Below, one piece after another: positions 38,430-64,000 of a DNA stretch of 64,000 bases. Source of the stretch: Sarea resinae (lineage: Eukaryota); NCBI GenBank assembly GCA_026026165.1, contig JAPEUD010000017.1, positions 124,001-188,000 of the forward strand. The letters run 5' to 3'. How positions within the stretch are numbered: the first letter of the stretch is position 1; the number at the start of each line of letters is the position of its first letter. The notes under the pieces were generated by a model. It was not told the DNA's origin, ran no database searches, and saw only the letters and a program-made list of their open reading frames with translations. A program made the translations under genes and the position numbers.

Positions 38430-39096
38430 GATTGCCGCTCGTCAGAGAAACCAACTCGTCGCGACATGTCGCAATCTGTGAGGACCTTAAAATAGAAATG
38501 ACAGAGTCCACCGGTCGACGACTGGAAAAGAGGGATTCCGACTGCCCGGGAGGTGGTGATGCGATCTGTCAACAGTCTGGTCTTGGAGACGATTGTAGCC
38601 CCCTCTAACAATCCCGGGAGTGTTGGAGGAGGGGTTGATAGTCGAACTTCCGTCGGTAGGCGCAGAGTAGCGATGAAACTTGGAATGCAAGAGTCCAAAC
38701 AGTGGTTTCGACGTTCGAGGCGTGGAGATATCTTTGGTGCGATGGTGACCAAGGTGGTCATACGGATGTGGAGTTGGCGGAAGGCTGCTGCGTCTGTTGT
38801 CTATCCTGTCCGGGCCCAGTGGTCGAAGGTGAAGCGCCACCAGCTACCAGCATCGCTGCCCTGCTGCTCGCTCGCTGTGGCTCCGTCACCGCCCACCGCT
38901 AAAGGTTCACGTCTACGAAAAGGTACTTCGCAGGAACCTCCCTGAGCTCGCCAAACCCGCCAGACATCAACCTTCCAGACATCCCACAGGCCACGTTAGA
39001 CCGCTCGACCCCGGCCATCTTGTAGCGGCAGGTAACGTCAAGTACCGTCAGGTAACGTAACGTAACATAACGCAACGCTTCTCCAGTACTGCGGAA

Positions 39097-39158
39097 ACCT
39101 ACCTACTACTTACCTTGCCTACCTTACCTACCTTACCTACCTTACCTACCTACCTACT
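39097..39158. repeat. TACC/TACCT low-complexity repeat in the DOA4-VPS27 divergent promoter
   Basis: acctacctacttaccttgcctaccttacctacc... directly visible. Confidence 0.8.
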
Positions 39159-39342
39159 TGCCGGCCTTAGATATCAGTCTCTCTCCTCTAGAACCATTCA
39201 CTACGAGGCACTCCCCTTCAGTGTCATACTATCATTTTTGGGCCAGTCGAGCATCCTCCGTGCAGCCAACGACATTTCATCATCTAGAGGTTCCCCACGT
39301 GCAAGCTGCTCGGACGTGACGGCAGCCTAATCATTCGGCTTC

Positions 39343-46483: not shown

Positions 46484-48794
46484 ATGGCTGGTCCGCGGAG
46501 GACGGGCTCGTCGCCTGTCGCCTGGTCGACCATTTTCTATCTCCTCCTGGTTTTCATTGCGCCTTTGGCATTCTTGACGCCCGCGGGCGCGGAAGATCAG
46601 GCTCCATCAGACAGTGCGAATTATGGTACCGGTACGTGGCATCTCGGCTCAGCAACCCATAGTTTCGAGGAGCTGACTTTAGACAGTCATTGGAATTGAC
46701 CTGGGGACTACATACTCGTACGAAGAACTCGCGACTCCCCTCCCGCTTGACAGCTGTGATTAACAGGTTTATAGATGTGTGGGTGTAATGCAAAATGGCA
46801 AAGTGGAAATCCTCGTCAACGACCAGGGCAATCGTATAACGCCATCTTATGTCGCTTTTACGGATGAGGAGCGATTGGTAGGAGATGCAGCGAAGAATCA
46901 ATATGCTGCAAATCCGAACCGAACGGTATACGATGTCAAGTACGTGGCCCTCCTTCCTACTGTTATCTTCTCGTTCTCAGCATCATCACTCACGCTTGTT
47001 ATAGGCGTTTGATCGGCCGCAAATACTCGGACAAAGACATTCAAGCCGACGTAAAGCACTTCCCCTTCCGTGTCATCAACAAGGATGGAAAGCCGTCAAT
47101 AAAGGTCGAGGTTTCTGGACAGGACAGGGTCTTCACCCCTGAAGAGATCTCCGCCATGGTTCTTGGTAAAATGAAAGAGATCGCAGAAAGCTACTTGGGC
47201 AAGACGATCACTAACGCCGTTGTCACCGTTCCGGCATACTTTAACGACAACCAGAGACAAGCAACCAAAGACGCCGGCATAATTGCTGGCCTCAATGTTC
47301 TCCGCATCGTGAACGAGCCCACTGCGGCCGCTATCGCGTATGGTCTGGATAAGACCGGCGACGAACGTCAAATCATCGTCTATGATCTTGGTGGTGGCAC
47401 TTTCGATGTCTCACTCCTCTCTATCGACAAGGGCGTATTTGAAGTTTTGGCGACAGCTGGAGATACGCATCTAGGAGGTGAGGACTTTGATCAGCGCATC
47501 ATTAATCACCTGGCCAAACAGTACAACAAGAAGCATAACGTGGACATCACAAAGGACCTCAAGACCATGGGCAAACTGAAGCGGGAGGTGGAGAAGGCCA
47601 AGCGTACCTTGTCTTCTCAAATGTCCACCCGTATCGAGATCGAGGCTTTCCATAACGGCAACGACTTTTCTGAGACTCTGACACGGGCCAAATTTGAGGA
47701 GCTCAATATGGATCTATTCAAGAAGACCCTTAAGCCCGTTGAACAAGTGCTCAAGGATGCGAAAGTGAAGAAGAATGAAGTTGATGATATTGTTCTTGTT
47801 GGTGGTTCCACTCGCATTCCAAAGGTTCAATCTCTTCTGGAAGACTTCTTTGGGGGCAAGAAGGCCAGCAAGGGAATTAATCCTGATGAGGCTGTCGCTT
47901 TTGGTGCTGCTGTTCAAGCTGGCGTTTTGTCTGGGGAGGAGGGCACGGAAGAAATCGTCCTCATGGATGTCAATCCATTGACTCTTGGGATTGAGACTAC
48001 CGGAGGCGTGATGACCAAGTTGATTCCACGTAATACCGTCATCCCAACAAAGAAGAGTCAGATATTCTCCACGGCCGCGGACAATCAACCTGTTGTGCTT
48101 ATTCAAGTTTGTAAGTTTTCGTCTCGAGTTTCCAGGATAATACAGCTATTAACTAAGCACCATAGATGAGGGTGAACGATCCATGACCAAGGACAACAAC
48201 CTACTCGGCAAGTTCGAATTGACCGGTATTCCAGCGGCTCCTCGTGGCGTTCCACAAATCGAAGTTTCCTTTGATCTCGACGCAAATGGCATCCTAAAGG
48301 TCACTGCCGGCGACAAGGGAACCGGCAAATCCGAGTCGATTACTATCACCAATGACAAGGGTCGATTGAGCCAAGAAGACATTGACCGAATGGTTGCCGA
48401 AGCGGAGAAGTTCGCCGAGGAGGACAAGGCCACTCGGGAGAAGATCGAGGCCAGAAATGGACTGGAGAATTATGCCTTCAGTCTGAAGAACCAGGTCAAT
48501 GATGAAGACGGCCTCGGCGGAAAGATTGACGAGGACGACAAGGACACGGTAAGCATCTCCTTCGATACAGAAAATATTTGAACGATTGCTGATGCGCCCT
48601 ACCAGATCATTGAGGCGGTCAAGGAAGCTACCGAGTGGCTAGAAGAAAATGCTGCAACGGCTACGACTGAGGACTTTGAGGAGCAAAAGGAAAATCTCAG
48701 CAACGTAGCATACCCTATCACGAGCAAGTTGTACGGTGGCGCCGGACCTACGGGAGATGATGATGAGGAGCCAGCCGATCATGATGAGCTATAG
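46484..48794 (+). CDS. KAR2: ER Hsp70 chaperone BiP
   Basis: Hydrophobic signal peptide, [40 protein letters not shown]-terminal HDEL*. Confidence 0.98.
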
Positions 48795-53760: not shown

Positions 53761-54039
53761 TCTCAGGGTATTCTGGACTGCTGTGTCGTTTTGATTTTAT
53801 CAAGCAATGGGTGTCAGGTGTTTTCCGGGTATAATTTCTGTACTATACTGGATAAAACGAGAGCCGGCTTTTTTTCTTTCTCTTATTCGACTCTTAGCAG
53901 TAGCAGCATTGAAGGTGTTCCATTGCTAGCTAGACTCCAGGCGTTTCATTCAAATATCACTGCTCCATCCTGTAGATCAGCAGCGATTCATGCCAGCCTT
54001 CTCCGATAATTCAAGTATCGTTGGCCCAAAATTCATATA

Positions 54040-54766
54040 CATTAATAGGCTACACCAACGGAGTTGGAGGCGGTCAAAATCCGTCTTCTCCAAACTCGAT
54101 CTCAAGTAGATCATATGATATCACCCTATGGGAAATTTCTTGGCACATCCATTCGAAATTGTTCCTGGCTGTGGGACACTCTCTTGCTGAGAAAATTGAT
54201 GTCGTCGCAATCGCTGCCTAGCTTCTGTAGCCCGTGTTCGTCGTCGCCACGTCGATACATACAGAAGACTTTGACCGCTGGAGCATACTCTTCGCTGAGA
54301 ATGGTAACACCATCGCAAATTTGCGTTTGCGATCATGGTACTTTGGAAAACTTGATCGTATCCACAGCTTCGACTAAGATGTCCAGCGTAATGGGAGAAC
54401 GGTTTCCAGTATCGTCAGCGAACAAGAGGTCGTCGCCCACCTTCTTCAACACTTTGTTCCTCATCAATGCGGCTTGTAATAGATGTAGATCTGTGTCTTC
54501 TGAAACCAGAATGTCGATATCTTTCGTAGAACGGTGGCTCCCCCGAACTACCATCGACGCGCCGCCGAGTAAGATGAATTGGGTTTGGAGGAGCGCTGCG
54601 CTATACAGTAGGCAAATAGGCATAACTCGGACGAGGCGGTTTATTATAGTCTTTTTGGCGTACATAGGAATAGGTTTGCCTATCTTACTGTACCTTACAG
54701 TTTATCAGCTAACTTGGTGACGCACTTTTCGATGATTTCGCGATATTCTGGTAATGGAACATCCAT
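54040..54766 (-). pseudogene. Degraded nucleotidyltransferase-fold gene (GG..DxD) with an LTR-derived insert, in-frame stop and frameshift
   Basis: MDVPLPEYREIIEKCVTKLADKL|AALLQTQFILLGGASMVVRGSHRSTKDIDILV. TGA at 54333-54335, after which protein-like sequence continues in frame (GVTILSEEY..VKVFCMYRRGDDEHGLQKLGSDCDDINFL). Further stop/frameshift near 54120-54170. Confidence 0.65.
54601..54699. mobile_element. ~99-bp copy of the 3' end of the LTR-like element at 55484-55882
   Basis: Aligns by eye to ~55786-55882 (AGTAGGCAAATAGGCATA..CGGACGAG..TAGTCTTTTTGGCG..TTGCCTAT..CCTTACA) with many transition differences. Confidence 0.8.
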
Positions 54767-55483
54767 GTTGGTAATCCAAAGCTATTCGACCTAGAACACT
54801 ACTAAACAGCAAAATCATCAAGGTTTGTCAAACCTTGAAGGTATAATAGATTAACAACAAAGTCCGAGCTTTTTTCGGTGAGACTCGTCCTCTCGGATGG
54901 CGTATGGATCGTTGTGGAAGGAATCGAGTTGTAGGGCTTTAGCTTGCACTTGACCTTCGGCGTCGTCTTCCGCGTCGAGCCCTTCTGATACGCTTTGCAA
55001 TATGGTTCCGTCAAAAGTGGTTGTATTAGATGATTGTAAGGACGAAGTACAAGAATGGAGGAGAGGGTTTGACTCATTCGAACATTGAAGAGTTCATTCT
55101 AAGACGAGAGAATAGAGAGAGGCGAAATGAGTGAATGGATGGATGGATGTGAGGGTGTTTTTGGCAGCAACAGCTTCGAACGGAGAGTGGTTAACATGTC
55201 GATGATATCGGTCGAACCGTTATCCTCAGATTGATCCGTCGACATTAATTGGACTGGACGATGGTAAACAAATGATATGATTGATTGTTAGACCATTTTC
55301 GCGCTTCCCCTAAGCGTTAATGGGGAAGGTCCTTCAAGTACTCGGGGCAAAAATCGACAACAATACCTCAAGTGGAAGATGTGCTGAACATGTGCTGAAC
55401 AGAGAAAGACGAGTCCAGATCTCAATACCTTACTCTGACCACCTCATCTGTCAGGCGCTGAGGTTGCCTTAGTTCCAGTGTTA

Positions 55484-55882
55484 TGTAAGGTGGCAGCCAC
55501 GCACAAAGTAGCACGTGACACTTATTATAGCCACTCATCTTCCATCTCCATCGACGTCTCCAGGGCTCCCTTCTCGATTCCGTTCTCGCCCTCTCCGTCT
55601 TTCCTACGACCTACTCTTCTACAATAGCCTATCGTCTGGAACTCCATGGCTTCCAATTGACCGGCGTACCCTTTTCACTGCCACGTGCCGTCAAGCTATT
55701 GGCATCTGGATCTTGAATCTGCTACATCTACGGCACATACGTCTTTGTAACCTGACAGCCGTTGTCGATTTGTGAGGCGCGCTGGTATATAGTAGGCAAA
55801 TAGGCATAGCCCGGACGAGCCGGGTTATAGTAGTCTTTTTGGCGCACGTGGGAACAGGGTTGCCTATTTACTGGTCCTTACA
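55484..55882. mobile_element. Solo-LTR-like element (399 bp)
   Basis: Perfect inverted termini TGTAAGG...CCTTACA (TG..CA rule); partial second copy 1.2 kb away; no target-site duplication found. Confidence 0.6.
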
Positions 55883-55943
55883 ACTTCATAGAGTTATTGT
55901 AAAGCTTAGTAGATTTTACATGTTATAGATTTTAGTAGCGTAC

Positions 55944-56011
55944 TGTCCTGATAAAAGCAATGTCCTAATAAAAGCAATGTCCTAATAAAAGCAATGTCCT
56001 AATAAAAGCAA
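55944..56011. repeat. 17-bp tandem repeat (TGTCCTAATAAAAGCAA)x4
   Basis: Directly visible; the first unit has one mismatch. Confidence 0.95.
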
Positions 56012-56108: not shown

Positions 56109-57574
56109 TCATTTTGGTGATTCTTGCACAAGATTACGGTCTATAAGTCCCTTTAAACGCCTATCGTTCTTGTTTTTTCCTCCAGCGCACTCTCTATCCA
56201 ATGGGACCAGCACTCGACCACCCCAAATGCCTTCAATATTGCATTTGCCAAAGGCAAGGCGTAATTCCATTCTGGCTCTAAGGCCAGACCCCAAAAGAAT
56301 CTCCTTGCCTTCTCATCAGCCATGTATTAGCTAGATTGGATGGCCCCCTTCTCCGCAGCATATCAGCCAAGACAATATCGTTTGGGCTCAGTGATAGTTT
56401 TCCGTCACACAATGCATTCATATCTGCTGTAACAAGTGATGGCCCAAAAGCTTCGCGTGGAGGCACAATGCGCGCCATTTGCCAGTCAATAACACCGGTG
56501 ATGTTGAGTTGCTCGTCGACGAGGAGGTGGTCACCTTTATCATCGACATGCTTCAAGTAGAATTTCTGAGGTATTTGGCTTTCATCTTGCGAGACCAGTT
56601 GTGCCACGTTATCCTTCAAGAATCTGTATACGAGATAGGCATTGACAGGATATTCGGTGTACAGTTGGCCATCCGCGATGAGGTCCAAATACTGTTCGGT
56701 AAAAGCAGTATAATAGGCAGTACAAGTGGAAAATGGCCCGGAAGGACTAAGGACGAGAAATCTGTCACTCGCAATCGCCGACACCTCGAATTCAGATGAC
56801 TGTAGAAGTAGAGAACCAGCCTGAGGAAAAGGATGCTTTTCTAATTCAATTAGAATGTCGGTAAGACCACTCCAGACCTTTGACCTTTCGCTCTCAGTAG
56901 CGTCTGGGCTAGAAATCCCTTGGCCTGTCCATGGGACCCCCCCTAATTCTTCCATGAGGATGAAGCTGACGCCAGTACTATGGTCTGTTCCAGTCCCACG
57001 TATGCCGTAACCGAATACTCGAGGTGCGGGTACCGCGGTGGTTTCAAGGAACTTCAGAGTTGCATATTCGCTGAGGATAAGGTACTCAACCAACGAAGAT
57101 GAAAGACCAACAGCAAAGCTGGCAACGCGTGGAACTCGAAAAAGCCATGAGGGAGAGCCATCGTTGAAACGAATGCGAGCGTGGTAGTTGGCGCACCCCA
57201 TAGGGGCGCCTGGGCCAATCGTGGAAGAATGTTCGATATTGCATCTCCGGCCACCATTGAGACTTGAGGCATATTCACAGACTGCTTTGTCGTTGATTCG
57301 AGAGCGAAGACGTTCAATCTCAGCGGTAAGTTGCAATCTGTAAGTTGCATCGTCCACGGCCTAAAACTTACAAACATTTAGCATTGTTTTTAGATGCAGT
57401 GGTTGACCTCAGAAAAGCAAACGATTTTACGCTTACCTCTGAGCTGCACTTGTGGAAAGAAGGGGACAGGTGAACGAGGCAAAGATGGCGATTGCAAACA
57501 TCACATCCACCGATGGCCCTAACACTTGGCCGTTCGCATGCTGGGACTGAGCAAGTAAAGAACCTGGAGCTCAT
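56109..57574 (-). pseudogene. APH-like phosphotransferase with N-terminal Cys/His zinc finger; two frameshifts in the C-terminus
   Basis: Exon 1 CSVPAC..CDVCNRHLCLVH..HKC; intron ~57436-57361; MGCANYH, WLFRVPR, SEYATLKFL, HVDDKGDHLLVD, GVIDWQ. The C-terminus continues in shifted frames (YMADEKARRFFWGL...; NDRRLKGL). Confidence 0.7.
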
Positions 57575-58607: not shown

Positions 58608-59968
58608 TTAGATAGAAGTCCACCCTGTCACTGTTTGAAAATCCATTACTGAATTCGGGCCACCAAATCGGCCCTGTGTATCCTGCCAATCACGGCCGAC
58701 TGCAGTCTCCGGCCTCCACTTGAAAGCCTCAGCCACTCTGGGATCTAAGGTACCCTCAAGAGCGTCGACAATAAAGCCTCCAATAGCCGGAATATGCTTA
58801 AAAGCGTGACCCGAGCCGCCAACTGCAAGCAACAAGGATGAATGCTCTGGATGAAAATCGATGAGGAATTCACGATTCGGCGTGTCCGCACACCAACAGA
58901 TGCGAGCGAATGAGAAAGGTCGATCTGCCAGTTGGGGCATAGTGTCCCGTAAGAAACCCCGCATACGAACCTCTGCTTCCTTTGGTATTTGATGCCTAGC
59001 GAAAGGAATGCTTTTCCGGACTCCATCTGCCCCCGTTATCCAGTTGCAGTATCCCGGATGCTCATCACACATCTTCAGCTCGTGATTATCTTCGTCAGGC
59101 TCCATAAAAAAACCTTTTTCGATATTGAAGAGAACCGGCAAGTTCTTATACAGTTTCACCTCCTCCTCAGTCATCTTAATATGAGCGAGGGTCCATGCGG
59201 TTGGCCGAAGCTGCTCCTTGAAGTCGAGGAATTGATCAGCGTTGGCCCCGGCAGCAAGTATGACGATCGAGGCCTCGTGCCGCCTCGCATCTCCAGTCTC
59301 CACGCCAATAACGTCGCCATTCTCATAAAGGAAGCCTTTGACATCACCACGTGGCGACCCACTAACGAAGATTACCCCGAGCCGCTCTGCCTCTTTTACC
59401 GCGGCGACCAACGCCTTCTTTGCATGGACCCACCCTGAGCCGGTTTTCTTGTAGTACCCCTTCCAACCAGGGAAAGCCCCTGTCAGTATGCCCTCGGGCA
59501 TGGTCTTGCGAAAAGCCTCCGCATTATCCAGGCGAAGAAATCCGTCTCTCGAGGGCGGCATCTCACGCTTTTCGAGGTAATCTAAACCGGCCGGTGAATG
59601 TGCAGCGACAACGTATCCCGTGCCGTGGTAGTAAGGCTTAAAGACAGGGTCCTCTAGCCATCCTCGGGCCACAGCCGCGCGTATTTGTTCATGAACATAG
59701 TCCTCCTCGCCGGTCTCAGAAGGTGGACCTGGAGAGCGATGGTCAGCCATTCCGCCGTGATGCTCTGGGAGATCCATGCTAAGACCCGACCTATCTCTGC
59801 TATTTTGTTGACATCGTTACCCGCTGCAATGGCAGAAGGGACGGGATAAGGATCAAAGACAGTGACATTGCGATATCCCCGACGAGCAAGATGCAACGCG
59901 GTTGAGGATCCCCAAGTGCCGGCACCAATGACGATGATGGATGAAGAAGGATTCAAGTTTTTGGGCAT
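58608..59968 (-). CDS. Fructosyl amino acid oxidase (amadoriase); intron 59790-59729
   Basis: FAD motif IIVIGAGTWGSSTALHL, SAIAAGNDVNKI, DPVFKPYYH, LRPTAWTLAHI, CDEHPGY, CWCADTPNREFLID, RFGGPNSVMDF. Confidence 0.92.
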
Positions 59969-60519
59969 GATGGCGGAGGATAACAAGCATTGACACAGCC
60001 TGCTAACAGTGCCATTGTTTTCAGAAGAAAGGTTAGTGTTGATAAAGTCGTACGTAGGCAGACGTTCGATGTTTGATCAATTTGGATTGCCTGATACCAA
60101 GGGAAGGTCTAGGCGGGAGCTGAGGCAATGATCGGCGAATTGAGCGAGAGCTTATCGGTCGAGGACATACTTGCAGCGGACCTAACGGGAGGGCCCGCGC
60201 GGTGGATAAGCCCCACTGAGCCTCTGAGCTGCCTATCGTACCCCAGAGTACTCTCTACCTTATGTACTCCGGAGTACTTCGTACACCATGTATAATTCGT
60301 ACTCGCATTCGTACTCGGAGTATGCAGTAAGTCCCGGGGCAAGGGCAAGTACTACTGTACGTAGTAGCCACACTAACACTCACGTTCCAAATTAGCAGGA
60401 ACGCCGTCTCCTTTTAACGTGCTCACCGCAGATTGGGCTCATGCACCTGAAAGCCTTTGGCGATACCACGGATCCTCCGCAATCATTTGATAGCAACTTC
60501 ACGTCCCCCAACGGTGTTC

Positions 60520-62181
60520 ATGATGCCCCGGCAAAATGTCGAAAGTTCTGAAAAGCGAAACTCGAGGGTCCGCACCCGAAATGGTTGCCAAACTTGCCGA
60601 AGCAGGAAAATCAAATGTGACTTAGAAAAGCCAACCTGCCGTCGATGCGCCGAAAAGGGCTATCGTTGTGATACCGGTTTACGCTTAAAGTGGGAAGAGG
60701 ATTATCTGAGCAGGGGTCTAGCTTTTGGCAGGAGTCGGACTTCTCGACCTGAAGACCCTTCTTGCTGTAGTGGCCGTGGTAGTGGCGGCTGCCATCTCGC
60801 CCGGTCCTGTTCGGACATGCAACTGTACTCAGGGCCTATGATCCAGCCTTACAGTTTTATCAACAGTGATTCCACCAACTTCTCCGAAGCTTCTGCGTCG
60901 CATGGATCGCTCCCCGCATGTGAGCCAAATTTATGGAATATCGCAACTACCCCCTTCCTCCTGTCTCCAACCTCTCTCCCTTCCCTTCCAAAGCAGACGG
61001 ACAAACGATTCTTGGACTATTATTATCAAGCGATGTGTCCTCTCACCACTGTCGGCTCCTCATCCAAGTCGCCTTTCGCGTCTATCCTCTTACCATTCTC
61101 TCTGGTCGAATCTTCCAATGTCTTCCATGCTATATTGGCACTCGCTGCATGCCATTGCAGCAAAACAAGCAACCTGTTCAGAGCGGATGCGATGCGGTTG
61201 AAAGACAGCGTGCTACGAAGCCTCCGAAAAAGAATACTCTCCCAAAGTTCGACTCAGGTTGTCCAAGATCCTGAAATCCTTCTTACCATGATGTTCATGT
61301 GCCTCTACGAGATTGTAGACAATTGCGACAAAATGTGGACGGTTCACCTTCGGGGCGCACGCGATGTCATACGCCTTCGACGACATCAGACCACGTCTTC
61401 CGTTGCGAGAGCCAATTCAGACCCTGTCCTCTGCTTTGCTGATCGGTTTTTTGCCTTTCAAGATATCATCGGTCGAACAGCATGTGGGGAAAGGCAACTG
61501 TTCGGCAATGAATATTGGAAGGCCGAGGATGATGAAATTGATGCCTGGATGGGCTGTAGTCAAGCTCTTGCTCGTATCTTGTGTACGATCACAGAACTAA
61601 GTCTACAAAAGCAGCGTGAGATACTGCACGTTGTAGAGTCTACTGAGCCTAGCTTCGCGATCAGAGCTGCAGAACTGGAGAATCAACTTGCGGGCCTTAA
61701 GCAGTCCTCAAAGACTGGCGACAGACTTCTCGAAAAGGCAGCGGAGCTGAAGCGTTTAGCTGCTGAAGTTTACCTACATTGTATCTTATATGACGCGACT
61801 CCTTCCACAGCGTTGATTGCTACATATGTTCGGAAGATCCTACGGGGAATCTCCGATTTTTTGGAAATGGGGTGCTTAGCCGGCTTGACATGGCCACTAT
61901 TTGTTGCAGCTGTCGAGCTTGACCCTATTAACGATGACTTGTGGACCGAGCTGGAACCAGGCGATTGCATATATGGAAGACCGCTAGTGCTCCGAGCTTT
62001 GGACGCCATGGCAAGCTCCACGATGGCCAACGTGCCCAGGACCAGGTCAGTCGTGGAGAGAGTATGGCACGCGCGGGACTTGGATCAGATAGCTGATTCA
62101 GGGCAACGGCGAACTTCTCAGCATCGCAATGACTGGGAGGCTTTTGTGGCCCCATTCAGCGAGCATATGAGCTTGACTTGA
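60520..62181 (+). CDS. Zn(II)2Cys6 transcription factor with fungal-specific C-terminal domain
   Basis: RTRNGCQTCRSRKIKCDLEKPTCRRCAEKGYRC; WTVHLRGA, FFAFQDIIGRTA, IDAWMGCS, TWPLFVAA. Confidence 0.92.
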   Translation: MMPRQNVESSEKRNSRVRTRNGCQTCRSRKIKCDLEKPTCRRCAEKGYRCDTGLRLKWEEDYLSRGLAFGRSRTSRPEDPSCCSGRGSGGCHLARSCSDMQLYSGPMIQPYSFINSDSTNFSEASASHGSLPACEPNLWNIATTPFLLSPTSLPSLPKQTDKRFLDYYYQAMCPLTTVGSSSKSPFASILLPFSLVESSNVFHAILALAACHCSKTSNLFRADAMRLKDSVLRSLRKRILSQSSTQVVQDPEILLTMMFMCLYEIVDNCDKMWTVHLRGARDVIRLRRHQTTSSVARANSDPVLCFADRFFAFQDIIGRTACGERQLFGNEYWKAEDDEIDAWMGCSQALARILCTITELSLQKQREILHVVESTEPSFAIRAAELENQLAGLKQSSKTGDRLLEKAAELKRLAAEVYLHCILYDATPSTALIATYVRKILRGISDFLEMGCLAGLTWPLFVAAVELDPINDDLWTELEPGDCIYGRPLVLRALDAMASSTMANVPRTRSVVERVWHARDLDQIADSGQRRTSQHRNDWEAFVAPFSEHMSLT

Positions 62182-62235: not shown

Positions 62236-63091
62236 GACGGAAAACGGAAGGTGTTCTAGAGGTCTGGCTGAAGTTGGACGAAAAGCCACGTTTGCAATAT
62301 ACCGAAATGGAACGATTCTGTAAGATCTAGTGGACAATACGTTCCATGTTTGCAACGGTAAGTAAGGTGGTTTGGGCGATCACTGTGGAGCAATCTCTTT
62401 TCCTTTTCGTTCGGGGGACCTCGAAACCAAGATCTGTCCAGCTTGCAGGGCTTTGTCTTTCTTCGTTGTATGTTAAAACGGATGGCTCGAGGATGCCAAG
62501 CAGGAAAACAATTACCTATGTCAATATGAAAGCGGCCGCCACGTTCACAATGATTGACTGATCAACAATATTGGGCCACCCTTCAAAGGCTGTACATGCA
62601 AGATCGCCCTGAAGGTAGGGCCATTAAGCCGCGCCTGGACTTGCCCATGGAATCGATTATGATTTCGTACTCGGTACACTTATCGTAAGGTACTTGACCT
62701 ATCTATCTACGTTCGCTTGCTCGCTTCGACCTAACTTCCATACTTTACGTTCTTCGAGTGAACCCTGGCTTGAATATCACATTGTCGATCATCCCCTGAT
62801 TAAGGGACTCCCCTTCGGCAGCATATCATGTTCCCTCTCCTCTCACACCCAGAATTGACCCCTCCCCCATGCTGCACATCAATGGAGTGCTTCTGATTTG
62901 TCTTGAGTTCCTGATAAGCCGATTGTTTGTTGGCCACTTATCTTTGAACGTAGCACTCTCTACGCCTGTAAATACTCAGGATCCTCGAATATATATCTCT
63001 ATCCTCATCATGGAGACGTGGTGGCCAGCTACAGACTGTCATCCGAACAGCCCCCTCGGGAATATTTTGAAAAGAAACGATCGCAACGGCA

Positions 63092-64000
63092 ATGGCAATT
63101 GCAATGGCAACCGTGTCCCTTCGCGATGACCTTGATGTGCCCGGCACAGAACGTCTCATCGACGTCAATCATGACCTTAACGTTTCTCATGCAGGCAACG
63201 ACATCATTCTTATCCCACAGCCTACATCTTGCGGAGGGGATCCTCTGCGTTGGTCACGGTGGAAGAAATATTACCAGCTTCTCCTAGTCTCCTTGTACGC
63301 ATGTTCATTCTCCTTCGGAGAGAACAATTTGGGTGCGGCTTGGACGACAATAAGTAAGGACACAGATGTATCAATCACCAATTTGAATGGTGGAGGTGCT
63401 CTCAATTACCTCCTTCTGGGCTTTGTTAATATTTTTTGGGTACCGACCGCCATGAAGATTGGTCGCCGCTTCGTCTTTCTAGTCACAAGTCTGATCTGTG
63501 TTGGGAGTGCAATCTGGACGGCAAAATTCCATGGCACAGGTCAATGGATGGCGTCTAATGTGCTGGGGGGTCTGGGGACTAGTGCCTACGAAGCTGTCAT
63601 ACAGCTCTCGGTATTTGACATGTTCTTCGCCCACGAGAGAGGCCGTATGCTAGCCGTCTACATATTTGGCCAGCAGCTTGGTTCCATTCTAGGACTGATT
63701 ACGGGCGGTTATATGGCTGACAGTCTCGGTTGGCGTTGGAGTCAGTATATTGTTGCGATTGTGAATGCTGGGATCCTGGTTTTGCTGTTCTTTTCTTTTG
63801 AGGAGACGCTTTTTCCCCGCTTTTTATTTTCAGAATCTCTCCCTGTCAGTATCACGGGTCCCGTCCCTGGCGCCGACAAAGCAGAACCAAGTCCATCTGA
63901 AGAAAAGAAGGATATCGCCATTGTCAGCGCGGCACCAGCCACGTTGAATGATTTCCCCCGAAGATCGTGGACACAGCGACTGCAGCTATGGGTGTACTAC
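63092..64000 (+). CDS. MFS transporter, runs off the window end (absent from the ORF track)
   Basis: Open frame from ATG 63092/63104: DVPGTERLID..IILIPQPT..DPLRWSRWKK, PTAMKIGRRFVFL, DMFFAHERGRMLAVY, LGWRWS, FEETLFPR; many hydrophobic segments. Confidence 0.9.
   Translation, partial: MAIAMATVSLRDDLDVPGTERLIDVNHDLNVSHAGNDIILIPQPTSCGGDPLRWSRWKKYYQLLLVSLYACSFSFGENNLGAAWTTISKDTDVSITNLNGGGALNYLLLGFVNIFWVPTAMKIGRRFVFLVTSLICVGSAIWTAKFHGTGQWMASNVLGGLGTSAYEAVIQLSVFDMFFAHERGRMLAVYIFGQQLGSILGLITGGYMADSLGWRWSQYIVAIVNAGILVLLFFSFEETLFPRFLFSESLPVSITGPVPGADKAEPSPSEEKKDIAIVSAAPATLNDFPRRSWTQRLQLWVYY

Follow-up and report, generated by a model that had tools for sequence, protein, structure and literature searches.

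Does the end of a mobile element that lies inside a nucleotidyltransferase (NTase) gene of Sarea resinae act as a ready-made intron boundary, or does it merely resemble one? The question arises at positions 54601-54698 of the window, by which we mean the whole stretch of 64,000 nucleotides analysed here. On the minus strand, which is the strand of the gene, an open reading frame begins with an ATG at 54766, reads MDVPLPEYREIIEKCVTKLADK, and stops at a TAA (54697-54695) that is barely within the insert; beyond the insert the reading frame continues, in a different frame, as AALLQTQFILLGGASMVVRGSHRSTKDIDILV.... Read on the gene strand from 54698 to 54601, the insert starts with GTAAGG and ends with TATAG, and a GT donor and an AG acceptor are thus both present. 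Excision of these bases joins ...KLADKL to AALLQTQFILLGG with the frame kept. An initial annotation of this DNA had described these ends and the in-frame fusion, all of which can be read in the sequence, and had taken the insert to be the terminus of a long terminal repeat (LTR) whose boundaries form an intron, possibly one that is in the process of being gained. The deposited gene model likewise removes exactly 54601-54698 on the minus strand as a predicted 98-nt GT-AG intron, all of it within one copy of a repeat (copy 1). We favor, and consider probable, an ordinary explanation: an abundant short repeat is inserted in what is now a pseudogene, and the GT-AG intron was drawn by gene prediction.

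The repeat, its extent and its abundance

A BLAST comparison within the 64-kb window matches 54601-54698 to 55786-55881 with 84.5% identity over 97 nt (E 2.45e-25), and shows no third copy of the repeat in the window. A match at 39115-39136 was rejected as a copy, as it is a taccttacc simple repeat; the region from 39080 to 39160 is a simple repeat of tacc/ttacc units, and its weak BLAST similarity to the CCTTAC end of the element is spurious. Metagenome contigs scanned with an 18-nt core common to both copies yielded four loci, all of them chance matches of 18-22 nt.

The extent of the repeat was determined with the contigs of run X1, the one public run listed with this locus, of DNA type and probably from the source sample, which were aligned to 54450-55950 at an identity of at least 80%. 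A total of 227 contig pieces were placed, and the depth summed over them is to be taken as an estimate and not as a copy count. Every bin of 55470-55724 has a depth of 320.3, corresponding to single copy. The summed depth rises to 66,904 at 55776-55826 and 40,900 at 55827-55877, which is 209-fold and 128-fold that of the flanks. Alignments of the other contigs stop on the left at 55771 (16 contigs) or 55786 (15 contigs) and on the right at 55882 (nine contigs) or 55873 (four contigs), and the sequences outside the repeat disagree among contigs, with an agreement of 0.42 beyond 55771 (n = 16) and 0.44 beyond 55882 (n = 9). Because only 55771-55882 is repeated while the flanks are single copy, the repeat is a stand-alone unit, TGTGAGG...CCTTACA, that is 112 nt long in copy 2 (55771-55882, plus strand) and about 114 nt long in the consensus.

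The summed depth suggests a copy number of the order of one hundred or higher for this unit. Four copy-carrying contigs among those listed (2705-6148 nt) have depths of 341-358, compared to 320 for the window's own contig, and seem to be single-copy loci in that genome. Many of the copies are closely related: 48 of the 227 pieces are at least 99% identical, 56 fall at 95-99%, 72 at 90-95% and 51 below 90%, such that 104 are at 95% or above. From the same study, runs X2 and X3 gave one and zero aligned pieces, respectively, none of them informative on the repeat.

The termini of the repeat are TG...CA, within an imperfect terminal inverted repeat of 7 nt (TGTGAGG / CCTTACA) that matches at six of the seven positions, and both ends read (T)GTRAGG in either orientation. 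A target-site duplication of 3-4 nt (GTT or GTTT) can be drawn for copy 1, and copy 2 has none. The internal inverted repeat that had been reported within the insert is present, and forms a stem of approximately 17 bp. Copy 2 folds on the plus strand into a long hairpin (-41.8 kcal/mol, z -2.5; minus strand, z +0.6), and copy 1 on the gene strand gives z -1.2 (116 nt) and z -1.7 (98 nt); apart from the plus strand of copy 2, the folding is unremarkable. Over the repeat region there is neither an Rfam match nor a match in a tRNA scan, and among proteins of 82-2000 aa none was found that carries the open plus-strand frame of the repeat. Compared with copy 1, copy 2 is nearer to the family consensus; judged by eye, about half of the differences between copy 1 and the family are C-to-T or G-to-A, too small a number for RIP-like decay to be called.

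Copy 2 is intergenic, with an APH-like gene on one side and the NTase pseudogene on the other. At 55944-56011, 60 nt to the right of copy 2, a 17-nt unit (TGTCCTAATAAAAGCAA) is present in about four tandem repeats, within AT-rich spacer sequence on the downstream side of the APH-like gene. The neighboring genes identified by Pfam are an APH-like phosphotransferase (56281-57360, minus strand), an intron-split FAD-dependent oxidoreductase (DAO; 58611-60076, minus strand), a Zn2Cys6 fungal transcription factor (60451-62178, plus strand) and an MFS transporter (63071-64000, plus strand).

In its general features the repeat is similar to the MITE-like and other short non-autonomous repeats of fungi, being about 112-114 nt long, non-coding, prone to fold back and high in copy number, with many copies at 95% identity or more and short imperfect terminal inverted repeats. 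It is unlike MITEs in that the terminal inverted repeat is just those 7 nt and there is no consistent target-site duplication in the two copies that can be read. We know of no autonomous partner of the repeat, and for this reason no superfamily can be assigned; it may be a MITE, a miniature solo LTR or a transposable element of another class. The proposal that mobile-element-derived DNA lies within the gene is supported, both by the 84.5% match and by the repeat mapping. The fallback offered in the initial annotation, an independent MITE or introner-like unit, came nearer to the truth than the LTR reading.

Element bases in the predicted exon, and a decayed host gene

Copy 1 spans about 54586-54699 (plus strand in the TGTGAGG...CCTTACA orientation) and is located in the region encoding the N-terminal helix of the NTase. 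Its left end can be placed within 54585-54588. A 6148-nt X1 contig with another copy of the repeat matches 54588-54700, and 54588-54601 is identical at 14 of 14 positions to the consensus (...TTGTGAGGAGCGCTGCGC) of the sequence that 15 contigs have upstream of 55786. The donor G of the predicted intron is the second base of the element, and since the element match reaches 54588, the predicted acceptor is internal to the element and is not its boundary, with TATAG lying 13-16 nt inside. Predicted exon 2 begins with 13 nt of element sequence (54588-54600, minus strand) that match the family consensus, and 12 of these (codons 54599-54588) encode AALL.

These positions bear on three earlier claims. 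An element terminus does supply the splice donor, in that the TGTAAGG end provides the GT used by the deposited model. The boundaries of the insert do not form the intron, given the internal acceptor and the 12 element nucleotides left in the exon. Nor is the insert a fragment of an LTR terminus, as the X1 depth and the contig ends identify it as a whole copy of the stand-alone 112-114-nt repeat.

The only close protein in the database is a 111-aa entry, 'MAG: hypothetical protein M1819_001791 [Sarea resinae]' (P0003), with 100% identity across the compared part. It is composed of exon 1 (54766-54699) and 54600-54336, with exactly the 98 nt between them removed as an intron. Exon 1 (54699-54766, minus strand) consists of MDVPLPEYREIIEKCVTKLADK and the first 2 nt of an L codon, and corresponds to a genuine NTase N-terminal helix, with CV...L...F spacing that aligns with the relatives. 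Beyond the element bases, the rest of exon 2 (54336-54587, minus strand) encodes an NTase-like domain core (QTQFILLGGAS...RSTKDIDILV...TLDIL...), as indicated by homologues and by weak matches to DUF6036 and AbiEii. The Pfam scores of the deposited protein are below the cut-offs (DUF6036, 23.4 vs 23.6 bits; AbiEii, 20.2 vs 22.5), although at E ≤0.01 DUF6036 matches eight and AbiEii six of the 12 aligned members, and the family profile matches PDB entry 8an4 (AbiEii) with an E value of 1e-4. The host family is a weak relative of the DUF6036 and AbiEii nucleotidyltransferases, related to the fold but not a certified member.

Besides the window's own deposited protein, the 14 proteins found by a full HMMER search (E ≤0.001) are ten relatives and three long ones, each with several matching stretches. 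The alignment was made with the ten relatives, and the three long proteins (P0004, P0005 and P0014) were left out. P0004 (1903 aa, 16 stretches) was rejected as a relative since a 28-residue motif, GTDLLYKDATGNDQVINLDQLVKANETV, is repeated in it in tandem at 90-residue spacing, and it scores against NTase residues 77-105 solely through this repetition. P0005 (992 aa, eight stretches), like P0004 a top hit of the representative search, has the same multi-stretch pattern, and P0014 is 1505 aa long with four stretches.

All nine of the relatives that cover the junction show C-x3-h-x3-L-x3-F spacing ahead of the GG motif, one of them reading CTKAL RDQLKT PFILLGG. In the deposited protein this part is CVTKLADKL AALL QTQFILLGG, with four surplus residues precisely at the junction; AALL is absent from all nine. 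Judging from this protein spacing in the relatives, ...CVTKLADKLQTQF... is the most likely ancestral reading of the gene. The size of the insertion would be about 110 nt by protein spacing and 113-115 nt by nucleotide similarity, apparently not a multiple of three; by either estimate the predicted intron is not a seamless removal of the insert. We found no X1 contig that joins across 54601-54698 as an empty-site allele should; the joints listed are all repeat-to-repeat, and contigs drop rare variants.

The condition of the gene downstream of the insert was evaluated by searching 53801-54900 with eight relatives (tblastn). From about 54590 to 54162 the homology keeps to one frame, and it passes across an in-frame TGA (54333-54335, minus strand) that lies within the conserved domain and is the end of the deposited model. 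Past this stop the NTase homology proceeds in the same frame (54129-54332, minus strand), although the TAG of that frame (54126-54128) falls after the homology has changed frame. The shift occurs between about 54160 and 54235, and a frame-shifted C-terminal remnant, ISNGCAKKFPIG*YHMIYLRSSLEKTDFDRL (54067-54234, minus strand; tblastn matches in frame -1), contains another in-frame TGA (54121-54123), the second at this locus. The final ~40 residues of full-length relatives (...GxRKhhhPW...) were not found at the locus by tblastn or in the alignment. With its two in-frame stops in homologous sequence, its frameshift and its lost C-terminus, the host gene is a pseudogene, and the earlier caveat that it carries stops is well founded. 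The deposited protein is a gene-model artefact of this pseudogene, which ends at a premature TGA and contains four element-encoded residues.

A spliced intron, an introner or an LTR

Of the alternatives, the one that survives best is that the insert is a real, spliced and recent intron, with a terminal GTAAGG donor, an internal TATAG acceptor, the frame kept and four extra residues in the product. This we regard as unlikely; were it correct, it would perhaps be an instance of transposable element exaptation caught in the act, maybe one predating the death of the gene. The GT..AG ends are canonical, the product is in frame, and the deposited model uses these sites, albeit as a prediction and not as transcript evidence. 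The AALL residues also fall in the N-terminal helix, where one of the relatives (P0009) tolerates an extra residue as well.

The splice signals can be compared with those of an Hsp70-family gene at 46560-48700 (plus strand) in the same window, for which Pfam HSP70 matches the largest exon with an E value of 9e-175, and which has at least five introns of 55-65 nt. Five of these introns served as controls; their removal gives one stop-free frame over 616 codons. At 98 nt the candidate is 1.5-1.8 times as long as the controls. Its GTAAGG donor compares with GTACGT, GTACGA, GTACGT, GTAAGT and GTAAGC, and has a G at position +6 where the controls have T, A, T, T and C. The TATAG acceptor speaks for the candidate, as it also ends two of the five controls. 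In contrast, a YTVAY branch motif is present 10-13 nt from the 3' end in all five controls and is absent throughout the 98 nt of the candidate, in agreement with the earlier remark that a canonical branch point is lacking.

The in-frame fusion is not beyond chance. Although removal of the insert does restore the frame, so do six of the 27 GT..AG pairs that are at least 40 nt apart and able to bridge both reading frames, and a gene predictor will therefore usually find one; among the possible bridges, the TGTAAGG end of the element is the best-looking donor. The two stops and the frameshift in the gene also mean that there is no present selection for splicing. Intron gain in progress, as had been suggested, is thus not upheld, considering the state of the gene (a pseudogene by its stops, frameshift and truncated C-terminus), the lack of a branch motif and a length 1.5-1.8 times the local norm.

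Introner-like elements (ILEs) of the Dothideomycetes were reportedly described by van der Burgt in 2012, and one could ask if the 112-114-nt repeat is a family of introners or introner-like elements. Its GTRAGG ends would then allow splicing in both directions, and copy 1 would be an old member with a decayed 3' splice site. We find this improbable, and no less so in the form in which the repeat is an undescribed, bidirectional introner of Sareomycetes that recruits a nearby AG as its acceptor, copy 1 being a decayed example. The high copy number, the short length, the many near-identical copies and the (T)GTRAGG termini in both orientations are all as might be expected of introners. Of the two copies that can be placed, however, one is intergenic and the other is in a pseudogene without seamless boundaries. 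The similarity of copy 1 continues for 13-16 nt beyond the acceptor into the exon, there is no acceptor AG at either end of the consensus, the minus strand of copy 1 folds with a z score of only -1.2 to -1.7, and no protein with the open frame of the element was found among those of 82-2000 aa.

The ILEs are defined as introns with a donor, branch point, polypyrimidine tract and acceptor (Collemare 2013, PMC3609843). The repeat is like these in being multi-copy, longer than regular introns, endowed with some predicted structure (copy 2, plus strand, z -2.5) and equipped with a donor-like GTAAGG at one end. It differs in that copy 1 is without a branch motif and has its acceptor internal to the repeat, and in that copy 2 is intergenic.

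Introns have been screened all against all by Gozashti et al. (2025, PMC12130899), whose supplement file 7 reports 0 introner families for a Sarea resinae assembly, GCA_026026165.1. Their pipeline keeps families of at least four similar introns in unrelated genes with similarity extending to both boundaries, and the paper states that solo LTRs as well as TIR elements are able to supply a splice site from their ends. The Sarea locus is like these introners in having a non-autonomous transposable element in a coding region with its end giving a splice site, and is unlike them in that the similarity overruns the 3' exon-intron boundary, at which their filter requires it to stop (PMC12130899). If the repeat were such a bidirectional introner family, this screen would have missed it because of variable acceptor places and a similarity that does not stop at the 3' boundary.

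The symmetrical sister (stw)introns of the Hypoxylaceae (Fekete et al. 2021, PMC8469720) provide a further comparison. These, too, are intervening sequences that have proliferated; they are about 90-200 nt long, carry terminal inverted repeats and lack flanking duplications. RNA-verified splicing, seamless integration in functional genes and terminal inverted repeats of 45-55 nt are properties of theirs, none of which is shown for the Sarea repeat (PMC8469720).

That the insert is a fragment or a solo copy of an LTR, the full LTR being at about 55484-55882, is highly improbable, for although the TG...CA ends, the TGTAAGG at 55484, a mirror of the CCTTACA at 55882, and the 4-nt GTTT direct repeat that can be drawn around copy 1 are in its favor, a match of 7 nt in 400 bp carries little weight by itself, the repeated part is just 55771-55882, the flanks of the other copies disagree (0.42-0.44), their weak consensus shows neither a primer-binding site nor a polypurine tract, and copy 2 has no target-site duplication. 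A second copy of the ~400-bp unit was not found in the window. Of the claim that the insert is a diverged copy of the last ~97 bp of an LTR-like element, the 84.5% resemblance to 55786-55881 stands, but the ~400-bp LTR body is single copy. The element may still be a miniature solo LTR, of 112-114 nt.

The probable origin of the annotated intron

We return to the insertion of a short repeat into a gene as the preferred explanation. A short, high-copy, non-autonomous repeat of 112-114 nt is inserted among the codons for the N-terminal helix of a small AbiEii/DUF6036-like NTase gene, now a pseudogene, to which it adds about 110-115 nt. An ab initio gene model regains the frame by calling a GT-AG intron, for which the TGTAAGG end of the element supplies the GT of the donor and the internal TATAG the acceptor, with 12 nt of the element staying in the exon. 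We infer that the 'intron' is an annotation bridge rather than a spliced intron, and that the insertion is without function. Several observations count against this explanation: both splice signals, GTAAGG as donor and TATAG as acceptor, could work in a fungus, the deposited model splices the insert, and GTRAGG is present at both ends of the repeat, an arrangement that some introners share.

If it were true that many copies are spliced from intact genes, the Sareomycetes would join the organisms with transposon-driven intron gain, although nothing here shows that. The finding is mainly a caution for annotation, in that a GT-AG intron of canonical appearance, called by an ab initio model, conceals a transposon inserted within a pseudogene. 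As a by-product, it adds an abundant and previously undescribed short repeat, with donor-like GTRAGG ends, to what is known of a Sarea resinae-like genome.
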